The notes below the pieces were generated by a model. It had not been told where the DNA came from. It did no database searches and worked only from the letters and a program-made list of their open reading frames with translations. Shown one piece after another: positions 33,042 to 39,982 of a stretch of DNA of 64,000 nt (within the stretch, counting starts at the first letter, position 1; each line of letters begins with the position of its first letter). The position numbers were made by a program, and so were the translations under genes. The stretch spans positions 39,829 through 103,828 of the forward strand of contig JBDRLW010000030.1 in NCBI GenBank assembly GCA_043812655.1, given 5' to 3'. This stretch comes from a bacterium. GTDB lineage: Bacteria; Margulisbacteria; WOR-1; O2-12-FULL-45-9; XYB2-FULL-48-7.

Positions 33042-34078
33042 TTAGCATCTTATCTTTTGCCGTTGTTTTCACGATCATTGCCGTCACCCATGAATTGGGC
33101 CACCTTATCTATTCAAAGCGGAACGGCATCCGCGTCCACGAATTTGGCCTTGGCTTTGGCCCTCGTCTTTTTGCTCACACATATAAAGGGACCATCTATT
33201 CCCTTAACTTGATCCCTATCCTGGCGTTTGTTCGGATAGCTGGCGAGTCGGACGACAAAGATGATGTTGATTGCCCTCTAAGCGAGAGTTATATTTCCAA
33301 AACACCGTGGCAAAAGTTCCAAGCGATCGCCGCCGGGCCGTTTTTAAATATTATTGCCGCCATGCTTATCCTTTCTGCTCTTTTTCTTGTTACTGGAATT
33401 CCCGCCGGCCTATCAAATGAGATCGGCATAGTCAGCAAGGACTCCCCCGCCGATTTAGCCGGCCTTAAGTCTGGTGATAAATTATTGGCGATCAACGGCC
33501 AAGCCTTTCCTAAGATGGAAGAAGCGATAAGTTTTATTCATAAAAGCGGCGGGAAGAAGCTCTCTCTCTCAATTGAAAGGGCGGGTAAAAATTTTTCCGT
33601 TTACGCTGTTCCCAAATATAATGAAAAAATGAAGGTTTCTCTCTTAGGGTTTACCGCTAACGCGGTTTATAAGCGGGTTAACCCCCTCTCCGCCATTTAT
33701 CATGGAATAACCCAGGCCTTATCAATGGTTGCCATGACCATTTTTATTGTGTGGCGCCTCTTTACGGGAGGGGTTTCCTTGTCTGATATCGCTGGCCCGA
33801 TCGGGATAGCTCAAATCACCGGGAAATATGCCCAAACAGGACTTGTTTCTTTGTTGTATTTTACGGCTTTTATCAGTGCCAATATTGGAGTAATTAACTT
33901 GCTTCCCCTGCCAGCGCTAGACGGGGGCCGCCTTGTTTTTGTCTTGCTCGAGGTTATTCGTCGTAAGCCACTTAGCCCTCAGCTAGAAATGAAGATCAAT
34001 CAATGGGGAATGCTTTTTCTTCTTGCTTTAATGGCCCTCGTCTCATTTAATGATATCCTTCGTCTCTTTAAACACTAG
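33035..34078 (+). CDS. rseP: RIP site-2 zinc metalloprotease
   Basis: HELGHL zinc motif in TM1, a PDZ segment, and the LLPLPALDGG C-terminal motif. Confidence 0.85.
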   Translation: MLISILSFAVVFTIIAVTHELGHLIYSKRNGIRVHEFGLGFGPRLFAHTYKGTIYSLNLIPILAFVRIAGESDDKDDVDCPLSESYISKTPWQKFQAIAAGPFLNIIAAMLILSALFLVTGIPAGLSNEIGIVSKDSPADLAGLKSGDKLLAINGQAFPKMEEAISFIHKSGGKKLSLSIERAGKNFSVYAVPKYNEKMKVSLLGFTANAVYKRVNPLSAIYHGITQALSMVAMTIFIVWRLFTGGVSLSDIAGPIGIAQITGKYAQTGLVSLLYFTAFISANIGVINLLPLPALDGGRLVFVLLEVIRRKPLSPQLEMKINQWGMLFLLALMALVSFNDILRLFKH

Positions 34079-34926
34079 CTTCTCTCTTTGCCCCTGGCTG
34101 CCTTTACTGTGTTCTTTAAGAGCATTGCTATTGTCATCGGCCCAACTCCGCCTGGGACCGGAGTAATATAAGCCACTTTTTCTTTGGCTTCATCAAAGGC
34201 TACATCTCCTACTAGTTTTGTTCCGCGGTTCATGCCAACGTCAATTACAATGGCCCCCTCCTTGATCATGTTTCCTTTTATCATTTCGGGTTTGCCAATT
34301 GCCGCCACTAAAATATCGGCCCTTCTAGTAACCTCTCCCAAATCCTTGGTTTTTGAGTGACAAACAGTAACGGTCGCTTGGTTTTGTAAAAGCAGGATCG
34401 CCATTGGCTTGCCGACTATGTTGCTTCTTCCAACAACTACGGCTTCTTTGCCGCAAATATCTACCCCTGTGGACAAAATTAGCTCAATACAGCCCTGGGG
34501 CGTACAAGGAATGAACGGGGGTTCCTCTCCCTTTAGCAGTTTTCCCATGTTCATTGGGTGTAAACCATCAACATCCTTGTTTGGCGCGATCTCATTCAGC
34601 ACCCGTCTTTCATCCAGTCCCTTTGGCAGTGGCAACTGAACCAATATCCCGTCAATCGAATCATCACCATTAAGCTTTTTTATTGTTCCAATCAGCTCGC
34701 TTTCCTTGATTGACAAGGGAAGCCGGAGGGTCTCCGACGCTATGCCAATTTCAGCGCAAGCCCTTTCTTTGTTTCTTACATAGACCTGTGAGGCCGGGTC
34801 CTCGCCTACCAAAACGACAACCAACCTTGGCGTCTTCTTCCCGGCCTTGGCCAACGAGGCCACCTCTTCCTTTATCCCTTGTCTTATCTTTTCTGCCAAA
34901 CCCTTACCATCAATTATTTTTACCAT
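34075..34926 (-). CDS. folD: bifunctional methylene-THF dehydrogenase/cyclohydrolase
   Basis: …YVRNKERACAEIGI… and GRSNIVGKPMA motifs. Confidence 0.9.
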   Translation of the reverse strand: MVKIIDGKGLAEKIRQGIKEEVASLAKAGKKTPRLVVVLVGEDPASQVYVRNKERACAEIGIASETLRLPLSIKESELIGTIKKLNGDDSIDGILVQLPLPKGLDERRVLNEIAPNKDVDGLHPMNMGKLLKGEEPPFIPCTPQGCIELILSTGVDICGKEAVVVGRSNIVGKPMAILLLQNQATVTVCHSKTKDLGEVTRRADILVAAIGKPEMIKGNMIKEGAIVIDVGMNRGTKLVGDVAFDEAKEKVAYITPVPGGVGPMTIAMLLKNTVKAARGKERS

Positions 34927-34929
34927 AAC

Positions 34930-34951
34930 TTATCCACACTCCTTATCCACA
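34930..34951. promoter_or_regulatory. two perfect consensus DnaA boxes (TTATCCACA) in direct repeat, 4 nt apart
   Basis: TTATCCACA at 34930-34938 and 34943-34951, beginning 4 nt upstream of the folD start and overlapping its SD region. Confidence 0.5.
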
Positions 34952-34960
34952 GGCTTATGT

Positions 34961-36298
34961 CTATTTGCCAACACAGAACCGGCTAAAAATTGATTCAATT
35001 ACTTCAACCGAAACCGCCTCGCCGCTGATTTCTCCGAGCGCTATTATAGCAGAATGTAGCTCGATCGCAATAAGATCAATGGGTAGCTTTTTCGCAATTG
35101 CTTCGAGCCCCTTCTCCAACGCTTCCTTGCTCCTAATTAAACATTCCTTATGTCGCTCATTAATAGCAACTCCATCGATCAATTTATCCTGCCTCCCGTT
35201 CATTGCCAACATATAAATTTCTTCTTTTAGTTTCTCTATTCCCTCCCCGGTCTTTGCTGAAATCAAGATAAAGCCGGGCTTATCTGGATCATTAATTAAA
35301 TCAATTTTATTGAGAACCTTAATCTTCTTTTTACAGGCCGCGACATTAATCTCCTCGTTGGCCTCATTTGGGCCCGTGGTTGCGTCGTAGACCATTAAAG
35401 CTATCTCAGCAATGTCTGCGGCTAGCCTCGCTCTTTCTATCCCGATTTTTTCCGCTTCATCATTAGGGTGACGAATTCCTGCTGTATCAATAATTATAAA
35501 GGGTAGGCCGTTGATGATTATTGTTTCTTCGATCGTGTCCCTGGTTGTCCCCGGCGTTTGGGTGACGATCGCGCGTTCTTCCCCAAGCAGGGCATTAAGC
35601 AGGCTTGATTTTCCAACGTTCGGCTTGCCTATTATTGCCAGCCGAAGCCCTTCCCTAAGAACCTTCCCCTCTTCCGCGGTTTGAATTATTTTATCAATTT
35701 CATTTATCCCTTCGTTGATCGCTTTCTTTGCTTGCTCTTGCCCTCTGTCGTTTACGTCATCGGGAAAATCTATTCCCGCCTCTATCTCTGTCGCTAATCC
35801 GACCAACCGCCCCCTGACCTCTCCTATCTTTTTTCCTAGCCTTCCCTCAAGTTGCGCCATTGCGGCGTTTTTTGCTTTTATGCTTTTAGCTGAAACAATG
35901 TCAACCACCGCCTCTGCCTTCGATAGGTCGATCTTTCCGTTTAAAAAAGCCCTCTTTGTAAACTCGCCGTTCTTTGCTAATCTTGCCCCAGCGGTTATTA
36001 AAATATTTAGCACTTCTTCTGCAACGATTTTCCCCCCATGACAAGATATCTCGACGGTATTTTCACCAGTGTAACTATTTGGGGCGGCTAAGAAATAAGC
36101 TAGGGTCTCGTCAATTTTTGTTGGTTTATCAGCGTTTTTTATCCAGCCGTGGACAACTTTATGAGAGGTTTTCAGTTCTTCAGAAAAAATCTTGTTAAAT
36201 ATCGTTAACGACCTTGGCCCGCTCATTCTTATTGAGGACACCCCTCCAACACCACAAGGCGAAGTTATCGCAACAATCGTATCATCATGAATGTCCAT
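34961..36298 (-). CDS. mnmE: tRNA modification GTPase
   Basis: GKPNVGKSSLLNAL G1 motif and C-terminal CIGK. The 15-codon upstream extension in the ORF track is made of the CACGTG palindromes, so the start is placed at MDIHDD…. Confidence 0.9.
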   Translation of the reverse strand: MDIHDDTIVAITSPCGVGGVSSIRMSGPRSLTIFNKIFSEELKTSHKVVHGWIKNADKPTKIDETLAYFLAAPNSYTGENTVEISCHGGKIVAEEVLNILITAGARLAKNGEFTKRAFLNGKIDLSKAEAVVDIVSAKSIKAKNAAMAQLEGRLGKKIGEVRGRLVGLATEIEAGIDFPDDVNDRGQEQAKKAINEGINEIDKIIQTAEEGKVLREGLRLAIIGKPNVGKSSLLNALLGEERAIVTQTPGTTRDTIEETIIINGLPFIIIDTAGIRHPNDEAEKIGIERARLAADIAEIALMVYDATTGPNEANEEINVAACKKKIKVLNKIDLINDPDKPGFILISAKTGEGIEKLKEEIYMLAMNGRQDKLIDGVAINERHKECLIRSKEALEKGLEAIAKKLPIDLIAIELHSAIIALGEISGEAVSVEVIESIFSRFCVGK

Positions 36299-36300
36299 AA

Positions 36301-36342
36301 ATGTTTCACGTGGAACATTGTTTAATTGTTTCACGTGAAACA
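36301..36342. promoter_or_regulatory. tandem CACGTG-centred palindromes (ATGTTTCACGTGGAACAT and TGTTTCACGTGAAACA) immediately upstream of mnmE
   Basis: An 18-mer with one asymmetric position and a perfect 16-mer, 8 nt apart. Related copies lie at 36410-36427 and 37711-37726. Confidence 0.55.
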
Positions 36343-36360
36343 TTCTATGCCTCCATTAGT

Positions 36361-36397
36361 CTAACTAAAACATACCCCACAATTGCTTGTGGGGTAT
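36361..36397 (-). terminator. putative rho-independent terminator after jag (stem ATACCCCAC/GTGGGGTAT, then GTTTTAGTT on the minus strand)
   Basis: 9-bp perfect stem with an 8-nt loop and a T-rich tail in the transcribed orientation. Confidence 0.5.
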
Positions 36398-36409
36398 AGG
36401 CTAAATAAT

Positions 36410-36427
36410 ATGTTCCACGTGGAACAT
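36410..36427. promoter_or_regulatory. perfect 18-bp palindrome ATGTTCCACGTGGAACAT
   Basis: Lies between the jag stop and the terminator hairpin. Confidence 0.55.
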
Positions 36428-37710: not shown

Positions 37711-37726
37711 TGTTTCACGTGGAACA
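37711..37726. promoter_or_regulatory. palindrome TGTTTCACGTGGAACA 22-38 nt upstream of the yidC start
   Basis: Fourth member of the CACGTG palindrome family. Confidence 0.5.
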
Positions 37727-38361: not shown

Positions 38362-38428
38362 CGTCTTTAATTATACTTGTCTTCGCGTCTTGTGTCAACT
38401 TTTTCCTTATGCTATACTTTCCCTTCCC

Positions 38429-39799
38429 ATGACAGACATAGACATTTGTTCCATTTGGAACCAAGTTTTGCCGCTACTCGAAAAAAGCCTGAACCGGCCG
38501 ATCTACGAAGCGCTTCTTTCCGGCGCTAAGCCGCAAGCCTTTGATGGCGGGGTTTTTGAGGTGGCGGTCCCTAATCAACTGGTAAAAGATTGGCTCTCAA
38601 AGTATTGCATTACCCTGCTCGAGCAAGAGTTGCAGGCCTTTTTACCTGAGGTCAAGAAGGTAAATTTTTTTGTCGGTGCCGAAGCACTTTTCTCAACGCC
38701 TATCTGTGACCCAAAAGCGCCGGAAATCCCGACCAAAAAACCGACCCAGCCTTTAAATCTATATTTAAATGCGCGGTATACTTTTGAAAATTTTGTCGTC
38801 GGCCACGGCAATCGTTTTGCCCACGCCGCCGCCGGCGCTGTGGCCGAAAGCCCCGCCACTGCCTACAACCCCTTCTTTTTATATGGCGGAGTAGGGCTGG
38901 GAAAGACCCACCTGATGCAAGCGATCGGTAATCGGGTCGTATTAAAAAACCCAAACGCAAAGATATTATATACAACCTCTGAGACTTTTACGAACGAGCT
39001 TATCGCCTCTATCCGCGAAGATAAAACCATCCAATTTAGGAACAAATACCGGAACATAGATGTTTTAATGGTTGACGACGTCCAGTTTATCGCCGGCAAA
39101 GAGCGGACACAGGAAGAGTTTTTTCACACCTTTAACGCTCTTTACGAGTCTAATAAACAGATAGTCTTGAGCTCCGACCGACCGCCAAAAGAGATGCTGA
39201 CCTTGGAAGAACGTCTTCGCTCCCGTTTTGAATGGGGACTAACCGCCGACGTTCAGGCCCCAGACTTTGAAACTAGGATAGCTATCTTACAAAAAAAGGC
39301 GGAGATCTCTGGGGTTGTCGTTTCCGATGAGGTGCTGGCCCACATCGCTGCCAAGATCGTCTCCAATATCCGTAAGCTTGAAGGGGCGCTGATCCGGGTC
39401 GTGGCGTTTGCCTCATTAAGCGGAAAAGAGATCGATTTGCCACTGGTTGAAGCTGTTTTAAAAGATTTTGCAACCACCGAAAAAGCGACCTTAAGTATTT
39501 CTATCGATCTGATAAAAAAAACCGTAGCCGAACATTACGGCGTTGCGATCGATGATCTTTCGGCCAAAACCAGGCTGCAAAAGATCGCCTTAGCCAGACA
39601 AGTGGCAATGTATATTACCAGGGAGCTTACCAGCGCTTCTCTTCCAAAGATCGGCGCCGAGTTTGGCGGAAGGGACCATACGACCGTGCTACACGCTTAT
39701 GAGAAAATTAAGGCCGACAAAAGGTCCCAATTTGAATTAGCTGACGCAATCAAGGACATATCGGCTACTGTTAAGAAATACACAACAGCCTCTGTTTAA
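38429..39799 (+). CDS. dnaA: chromosomal replication initiator protein
   Basis: Walker A GGVGLGKTHL, box VII, and C-terminal HTH (…GGRDHTTVLHA…). Start placed at MTDIDICSIWNQV; the upstream 26 codons look like an extension. Confidence 0.92.
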   Translation: MTDIDICSIWNQVLPLLEKSLNRPIYEALLSGAKPQAFDGGVFEVAVPNQLVKDWLSKYCITLLEQELQAFLPEVKKVNFFVGAEALFSTPICDPKAPEIPTKKPTQPLNLYLNARYTFENFVVGHGNRFAHAAAGAVAESPATAYNPFFLYGGVGLGKTHLMQAIGNRVVLKNPNAKILYTTSETFTNELIASIREDKTIQFRNKYRNIDVLMVDDVQFIAGKERTQEEFFHTFNALYESNKQIVLSSDRPPKEMLTLEERLRSRFEWGLTADVQAPDFETRIAILQKKAEISGVVVSDEVLAHIAAKIVSNIRKLEGALIRVVAFASLSGKEIDLPLVEAVLKDFATTEKATLSISIDLIKKTVAEHYGVAIDDLSAKTRLQKIALARQVAMYITRELTSASLPKIGAEFGGRDHTTVLHAYEKIKADKRSQFELADAIKDISATVKKYTTASV

Positions 39800-39982
39800 A
39801 ACTTTTTTTATTTGTTTTATACACAATGATAAAGGACAGGGGTTGATAACTTTCTAAAACTTTTGCTGTTATTAAAAGAATTAAAATGGTTATTAACATA
39901 TCAACAAACTCTTTTACTACTATTTCTTTTTATACTATAATTATAGGGGATAAAAACTTGTTAATAACTAAGAGGGGGGATT
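39800..39982. other. candidate oriC: AT-rich dnaA-dnaN intergenic region with at least 5 degenerate DnaA boxes
   Basis: TTATACACA (39816), GGTTGATAA (39841), TTATTAACA (39890), ATATCAACA (39899) and AGGGGATAA (39944) each differ from TTATCCACA/TGTGGATAA by 2 positions or fewer. About 75% AT. Confidence 0.45.

Follow-up and report, generated by a model that had tools for sequence, protein, structure and literature searches.

DnaA doubles as a transcription factor, and regulon maps for it are available, to our knowledge, for just a few cultured species. In Escherichia coli, DnaA binds the double DnaA boxes of its regulon, which include those at purH, nrdA, polA, dnaA, and mioC (Stringer, Fitzgerald & Wade 2024, PMC11317965). 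Such a double box is composed of two co-oriented boxes located 2 to 3 bp apart, and binding at the purH pair dropped strongly when its spacing was changed from 3 to 4 bp (PMC11317965). The purH gene, which has its double box upstream, is folate dependent and consumes the 10-formyl-THF made by FolD (PMC11317965). According to work cited in that paper, DnaA bound inside transcribed regions of E. coli acts as a roadblock, and the paper describes roadblocking and promoter-proximal repression as known modes of E. coli DnaA.

DnaA boxes near the origin have been described in other species as well. The origin-proximal DnaA-box clusters of Bacillus subtilis, some of which also regulate a neighboring gene, include DBC[thdF-jag] (Okumura et al., PMC3245932). 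At oriCII of Pseudomonas aeruginosa, DnaA boxes beside the origin gene cluster control the operon that follows and are dispensable for initiation (PMC13438810). For origin unwinding, the basal unwinding system (BUS) comprises at least three DnaA-trios, with the middle A on the bound strand, located at most 16 bp from a DnaA box and followed by AT-rich DNA (PMC8287927). Here, we analyze a pair of DnaA boxes at the mnmE-folD junction of a genome from an uncultured bacterial class.

Two exact DnaA boxes abut the folD start codon

The window, which is the whole 64-kb stretch of DNA that was analyzed, was scanned for the DnaA-box 9-mer TTATCCACA (TTWTNCACA). Exact matches are present at positions 34930-34938 and 34943-34951 of the + strand, in the same orientation and separated by the 4-nt spacer CTCC (34939-34942). 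This recovers the two exact, directly oriented boxes 4 nt apart that a first-pass annotation of this DNA had reported. The + strand context of the pair reads ...ccataac TTATCCACA ctcc TTATCCACA ggcttatg..., and the minus (folD) strand across the junction reads TAG-acataagcc-TGTGGATAA-ggag-TGTGGATAA-gtt-ATG. On the folD strand, both the proximal box (34930..34938, minus strand; -12 to -4 from the folD ATG) and the distal box (34943..34951, minus strand; -25 to -17) are the exact consensus TGTGGATAA. On the + strand, the folD start codon reads CAT (34924-34926; ATG on the minus strand). The proximal box is thus separated from the ATG by 3 nt (34927-34929), and the boxes indeed abut the folD start. 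Of the 34 nt that separate mnmE from folD (mnmE stop, 34961-34963; folD start, 34926), the pair takes up the greater part.

No other perfect DnaA box occurs in the window, where 0.37 are expected, in line with the earlier estimate of fewer than one per 64 kb; two or more perfect boxes, counted anywhere in the window, occurred in 8 of 100 shuffled windows. In the whole 1.616-Mb assembly, 17 perfect single boxes were found versus 15.8 expected, and single boxes are thus at chance level. The genome-wide scan that had been proposed nevertheless singles out one double box, the folD site, which is the only co-oriented pair with at most two mismatches in total and a spacing of 2 to 4 nt in 1.616 Mb. 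By chance, 0.3 such pairs at two or fewer mismatches and 2.4e-4 perfect pairs are expected per assembly of this size. This number, together with the class-wide conservation described below, rules out a chance occurrence, as the first-pass annotation had suspected of two adjacent copies. A dispersed repeat or a general translation-start motif can also be dismissed, given one copy per genome.

A wider DnaA regulon in this genome was considered and rejected, the remaining 15 perfect boxes occurring at chance frequency and 11 of them lying within ORFs. The four intergenic single boxes are found by atpD, by membrane glycosyltransferase-like genes, by a small membrane protein gene after msrBA, and downstream of purQ, and no pattern was apparent among these four. 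The box after msrBA (contig C31, ~20146) is positioned between a TATAAT-like element and the Shine-Dalgarno (SD) sequence of the gene for a 122-aa membrane protein, and the one near purQ (contig C16, ~12802) is intergenic, ~340 nt downstream of the purQ-like gene and near the contig end. As in E. coli, most perfect single boxes elsewhere in the genome appear to be nonfunctional.

The folD pair resembles the E. coli double boxes in that two co-oriented 9-mers are placed about one helical turn apart, an arrangement bound there as a DnaA dimer, and in its position beside a nucleotide-supply gene, purH being the user of the 10-formyl-THF of FolD. However, both boxes are perfect here, whereas one is usually degenerate in E. 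coli, and the spacing, 4 bp in this genome and mostly so across the class (2 to 4 bp), differs from the 2 to 3 bp of the co-oriented E. coli boxes. Moreover, the folD site overlaps a ribosome-binding site between co-directional genes, while the E. coli sites are located in promoters, and folD is absent from the E. coli ChIP list. Like the E. coli roadblocks, the boxes would lie downstream of a promoter in the path of the elongating polymerase, where DnaA-dependent termination takes place in E. coli. Unlike in those cases, the presumed effect here would come from a double box that sits precisely at the junction between two cistrons and is conserved throughout a class.

The pair lies in a gene cluster with mnmE, parS sites, and the origin

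The identities of folD, mnmE, yidC, rnpA, dnaA, and dnaN are supported by NCBIfam. The folD gene (34075..34926, minus strand) encodes a bifunctional methylene-THF dehydrogenase/methenyl-THF cyclohydrolase of 283 aa (NCBIfam FolD models, E ~1e-116). Upstream of it and co-directional is mnmE (34961..36343, minus strand), encoding a tRNA U34 modification GTPase (TIGR00450, E 2.7e-113, match from residue 32). MnmE-MnmG uses a folate one-carbon donor, and the pairing of mnmE with folD would therefore be sensible. On the minus strand, the gene order is rpmH, rnpA, yidD, yidC, jag, mnmE, and folD; on the plus strand, it is dnaA, dnaN, a DUF721 gene, gyrB, and gyrA. The dnaA gene (38429-39799, plus strand; TIGR00362, E 4e-164) has its probable ATG at 38429, which agrees with the reported distance of 3.5 kb between the pair and dnaA.

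Four parS sites (TGTTNCACGTGNAACA; 36302-36317, 36327-36342, 36411-36426, and 37711-37726) lie between the box pair and oriC. They are the only ones in the 1.6-Mb assembly and cluster between folD/mnmE and rnpA. Two of them share sequence with the first codons of mnmE as annotated, and the true mnmE start is therefore probably downstream of both, ~20 codons further in.

With respect to transcription, a candidate internal promoter, TTGCGA-16-TGcTATAAT, was found in the mnmE 3' end (35043..35070, minus strand) by a consensus scan alone, with 10/12 matches and an extended -10 element. Because the scan returned 11 sites versus 8.1 expected, the match is weak evidence; a transcript from it would have a leader of ~110 nt that crosses the box pair. 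A terminator-like hairpin with a 12-bp stem and a T-run is present between jag and mnmE (36371-36398, minus strand). The rpmH...jag transcript probably ends there, and mnmE-folD would therefore be a separate unit. In addition, a perfect sigma-70 consensus promoter, TTGACA-17-TATAAT (12/12), is located just upstream of rpmH (38370-38398, minus strand), divergent from dnaA.

The Shine-Dalgarno sequence of folD is nested between the boxes

The SD sequence of folD, TAAGGAG (34939..34945, minus strand), is formed by the spacer GGAG and the TAA of the distal box, with 12 nt from GGAG to the ATG. Across 47 loci of the class, the spacer of the pair is GGAG in 19, GGGG in 8, and GGA in 7, with GAGG, AGGG, and similar sequences also found, and it is G-rich wherever the interval between pair and ATG holds no other SD sequence. 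The spacer is instead CTC or CT in families f10 and f13, where a separate SD sequence follows the pair ahead of the ATG, and GCC in relative G015, where folD is gone. These exceptions indicate that the G-rich spacer reflects the SD sequence and not a requirement of DnaA. The genome uses GGAG-type SD sequences, for which the GGAG-to-ATG spacing peaks at 5 to 10 nt genome-wide. At 12 nt (11 to 13 nt being described for the pair), folD falls in the tail of this distribution, and since the spacing is stretched beyond the norm, the proximal box appears to fill the SD-ATG spacer at some translational cost.

The pair is conserved throughout the class

For an order-level sample, folD was located in 30 relatives from two families and ~24 genera, and the DNA upstream was read. 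Of 29 loci, 28 have mnmE ahead of folD, with TGTGGATAA-N3/4-TGTGGATAA ending 2 to 4 nt short of the ATG; genus g7 has TGTGGAAAA as its distal box. The rest of the mnmE-folD spacer, 30 to 97 nt long, is unalignable between these genomes, with protein identities within the order of 60 to 71% for FolD and 41 to 50% for MnmE. At their widest across the compared loci, identities drop to ~55% (FolD) and ~39% (MnmE). A pattern scan of all 146 genomes of the phylum showed that nearly every genome of the order has a single exact pair in its entire assembly, located at folD.

A class-level survey, in which the order sample was joined by the remaining 11 families, covered 58 loci from 13 families. The mnmE-to-folD synteny is present at all 58, and a pair or a cluster of 2 to 3 boxes is found just 5' of folD at 47 of them, in 11 of the 13 families. 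The check at folD in relatives that had been suggested thus reveals retention, not the lack of conservation that had been named as an argument against the site. Aligned on the proximal box, the 47 loci are 98 to 100% conserved per position in the proximal box and 87 to 100% in the distal box, versus 28 to 57% in the 30 nt upstream of the pair; as relatives do not count as statistically independent samples, what matters for the argument is the contrast between invariant box positions and randomized flanks rather than counts. The GCC that flanks the distal box (34952-34954) is 66 to 68% conserved. The cluster is never more than ~45 nt from the folD ATG, and its distance to the mnmE stop ranges from ~3 to >200 nt. 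A box spacing of 4 bp is the commonest, 3 or 2 bp also occurring, and the box centers are 11 to 13 bp apart.

Two families, f7 and f8, keep mnmE-folD with the boxes mostly absent and have two parS sites and an ordinary SD sequence instead, from which it follows that folD does not need the boxes. In many relatives, parS is found inside the mnmE-folD spacer, immediately upstream of the pair. Three boxes are present at the site in families f3 and f5 and in G015. In family f3 (L216, L222, L225, and L227), the third box, TTATGCACA, is inverted and abuts the distal box (GGTGGATAA) just upstream of folD, giving a layout that is head-to-head plus head-to-tail. Another relative (G025; L025, contig C31) has two folD copies, with 69% and 60% identity to the query and a box pair before both; the second is located at a contig end and may derive from a contaminating related strain.

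In the 20 families sampled outside the class, folD is not beside mnmE and there are no boxes at folD; exact tandem pairs lie directly upstream of dnaA there. The mnmE-folD junction with its DnaA site is therefore a shared derived trait of the class. When 185,579 species were scanned for the tandem pattern, at least 120 loci were obtained, and among the matches listed, all are of the oriC type with C/T-rich spacers and none adjoins folD.

One relative has lost folD and kept the pair

In G015, folD is gone from the locus (L056, 1440-2000), yet the two boxes are perfect. The sequence downstream of mnmE consists of cTGTGGATAAgccTGTGGATAActaATG, eight codons with a stop, and ~470 nt of noncoding DNA up to a convergent rseP, with a third perfect box ~450 nt beyond the pair. 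Searches with tblastn and a profile HMM at maximum sensitivity revealed no remnant of a folD pseudogene. A distant folD paralogue with 46% identity is encoded elsewhere in the genome, without boxes; another relative, G121, carries both folD types. Because the G015 pair is perfect in the absence of folD, selection on the boxes does not need folD.

The pair is predicted to be a DnaA site

In the E. coli domain IV-DNA complex 1J1V, Fujikawa et al. in 2003 reportedly described base contacts by R399, P423, D433, H434, T435, and H439. The equivalents of all these residues are identical in the DnaA of this genome, and the stretch SLPkIGaeFGGRDHTTVLHA, which spans P423, D433, H434, T435, and H439, is intact. 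In the sister family f2, perfect boxes are located ~45 nt upstream of dnaA, with several in both spacers that flank this gene, and in other classes of the phylum, tandem TGTGGATAA-type pairs are found upstream of dnaA. A known RNA family, riboswitch, or structured leader was considered for the mnmE-folD junction and discarded, as no Rfam match was obtained at E <=5 and the RNA fold is no better than that of shuffled sequence (z = -1.4). Based on the canonical DnaA domain IV, the use of the same 9-mer at dnaA/oriC in relatives, the lack of an Rfam match at this threshold, and the insignificant fold, we predict that the pair is very likely bound by DnaA.

The conserved origin module is in the dnaA-dnaN spacer

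The oriC core (39890..39946, + strand) contains degenerate tandem boxes (TTATTAACA and ATATCAACA), a DnaA-trio-like array, and an AT-rich stretch. This module is common to 30/30 relatives, in whose dnaA-dnaN spacers tandem boxes are followed by a short GC cluster, an array of the CTACTATTACTA type, and finally AT-rich DNA resembling TATATTATAAT. In this genome, the array reads CTT TTA CTA CTA TTT CTT TTT ATA CTA (39911-39937), i.e., nine consecutive NTN triplets, in agreement with the BUS definition. The GC-skew minimum, which the first-pass annotation had suggested should be placed relative to the pair, is at ~38-40 kb of the window, at the oriC module, whose core lies 4.9 kb from the pair.

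The earlier remark that the dnaA-dnaN spacer contains only degenerate boxes holds: one box with at most one mismatch, TTATACACA, was found (39817-39825). This is a feature of the whole family f1, to which the genome belongs and in which the oriC boxes are TTATCAACA-type; those of f2 are nearer to the consensus. In f1, the rpmH-dnaA spacer is 66 to 150 nt long and without boxes, measuring 66 nt here (38363-38428). In f2, it is 300 to 400 nt long with several DnaA boxes, including a perfect one ~45 nt before dnaA. Judging from these spacers (loci L181-L210), f1 seems to have lost either box-mediated autoregulation of dnaA or an upstream half of the origin.

Discussion

As judged from its sequence and distribution, the pair is a genuine double box for DnaA whose conservation is unusually high. 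We lean, with some caution, toward the view that this 22-bp element acts as a high-affinity double DnaA box that gates transcription into folD by DnaA occupancy. Two DnaA molecules would bind head-to-tail, one helical turn apart, covering the DNA that encodes the folD SD sequence and reaching within 3 bp of the start codon. Bound in the transcribed mnmE-folD gap, DnaA would act as a roadblock or promoter-proximal repressor, and RNA polymerase arriving from mnmE or from a promoter in the mnmE 3' end would stop before copying the folD ribosome-binding site. High levels of free DnaA would thus lower FolD output, and titration or inactivation of DnaA would raise it, as would passage of the fork that arrives from the origin 4.9 kb away and clears the site. 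FolD supplies one-carbon units for purines and fMet, and the outcome would be a supply of 10-formyl- and methenyl-THF coupled to the replication cycle. DnaA binding, repression as its direction, and the cell cycle logic are what we infer, and activation in place of repression is also conceivable.

Control of folD is favored because the SD sequence is nested between the boxes, and it agrees with the occurrence of the exact consensus twice, in the sole double box of the genome, and with a cluster that is tied to the folD ATG. However, G015 keeps the perfect pair without folD, families f7 and f8 keep mnmE-folD without the boxes, the commonest spacing of 4 bp is the one that weakens binding at E. 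coli purH (PMC11317965), and the promoter for folD is a consensus match only. Among the literature searched, no paper connects DnaA boxes with folD. The first-pass annotation had offered either control of folD or a titration or auxiliary origin-proximal site. The class-wide pair and the canonical DnaA are consistent with both parts of this proposal, except that an auxiliary origin in the sense of an unwinding site does not stand, as the trio and AT-rich module is missing at folD.

The serious rival to folD gating, or else a second function beside it, remains a DnaA docking or titration site that is independent of folD and belongs to an oriC-side maintenance hub with parS. Such a site would buffer free DnaA or organize the origin region, its contact with the folD start being a by-product of genome compaction and the SD sequence simply using the sole free bases. 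We consider this possible but rather less probable as a full account; the two roles are not exclusive. G015 argues for a folD-independent role, as it lost folD yet kept the perfect pair with the non-SD spacer GCC and a third perfect box, although it is a single case in which the loss could be recent. In this genome all four parS sites lie between the pair and oriC, in many relatives parS immediately precedes the pair, and in f1 the boxes at dnaA/oriC are degenerate, which leaves the perfect folD pair as the strongest site near the origin. Synteny and boxes are also both confined to the class, as seen against the 20 outside families sampled. Precedents exist in B. subtilis, where deleting all six clusters, the one at thdF(mnmE)-jag included, advances initiation (PMC3245932), and in P. 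aeruginosa, where the oriCII DnaA-box cluster is located upstream of gidA (PMC13438810). Like the folD pair, the B. subtilis DNA is origin-proximal but not part of oriC, with mnmE (thdF) and parS sites as neighbors; unlike it, it has many boxes over hundreds of base pairs upstream of thdF, instead of two downstream of mnmE. The oriCII cluster likewise adjoins mnmE/trmE in Pseudomonas, but it has five or more boxes, at least 130 bp upstream of the promoter, acts by activation, can drive plasmid replication, and has gidAB-parAB rather than folD as its target (PMC13438810). Compared with many-box titration clusters of the DBC or datA-like type, the site is origin-proximal (4.9 kb away) but consists of two boxes only, which would hold about two DnaA molecules, poor titration next to clusters of nine or more. 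Also, the pair hugs the folD ATG and not the mnmE stop, forcing a suboptimal SD spacing, while a pure docking site could sit anywhere in spacers of up to 250 nt.

A more far-reaching version, which we regard as unlikely, is that the pair is not mainly a regulator of folD but an essential remote high-affinity anchor of the origin region that recruits or retains DnaA 5 kb from the degenerate f1 oriC, or else sets a boundary to ParB spreading from the neighboring parS sites, with the folD ribosome-binding site being secondary. If true, the remote anchor would represent a new, split origin architecture in the sister lineage of Cyanobacteria. That the pair is itself part of the origin, either as an additional unwinding module or as half of a bipartite oriC, is hardly credible. 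Its head-to-tail tandem boxes followed by a GC cluster (TTATCCACAGGC) do resemble the start of a basal unwinding system, and the site is 4.9 kb from dnaN, inside the GC-skew trough. After the pair, however, there is neither a conserved DnaA-trio array nor an AT-rich element but variable DNA, which in this genome is mnmE coding sequence; the median is two triplets and no array is conserved across genomes, from which we conclude that the folD pair is not an unwinding site. This trio and AT-rich test largely rules out a second origin or unwinding module at folD, and the conserved module of boxes, CTACTA... trios, and AT-rich DNA is found in the dnaA-dnaN spacer of 30/30 genomes. Very improbable, too, is an RNA-level reading in which the repeat is a translational operator, a structured folD leader, or the site of a protein other than DnaA, and its identity with the DnaA box is coincidental. 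The constant orientation relative to folD and the overlap of the repeat with the SD sequence would fit such a role. Yet neither the Rfam search nor the fold lends it support, repeats in direct orientation cannot base-pair with one another, the 9-mer is the exact DnaA consensus twice over and also serves dnaA and oriC in relatives, and in G015 the pair persists without any downstream gene.

In conclusion, a single DnaA target of extreme conservation emerges in an uncultured class from comparative genomics alone, with folD as a target that parallels the E. coli DnaA site at purH. In family f1, the folD pair surpasses every other DnaA site in the genome, including those in oriC. As a compact 22-bp element with the SD sequence nested between its boxes, it could offer a portable test of DnaA roadblocking and of the spacing rules, and G015 gives natural access to an old question, namely whether sites of this kind act in gene control, in DnaA buffering, or in both. 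Because the pair is kept almost letter for letter throughout the class, replication initiation is probably wired to one-carbon metabolism in these bacteria, or DnaA is parked next to their origin.
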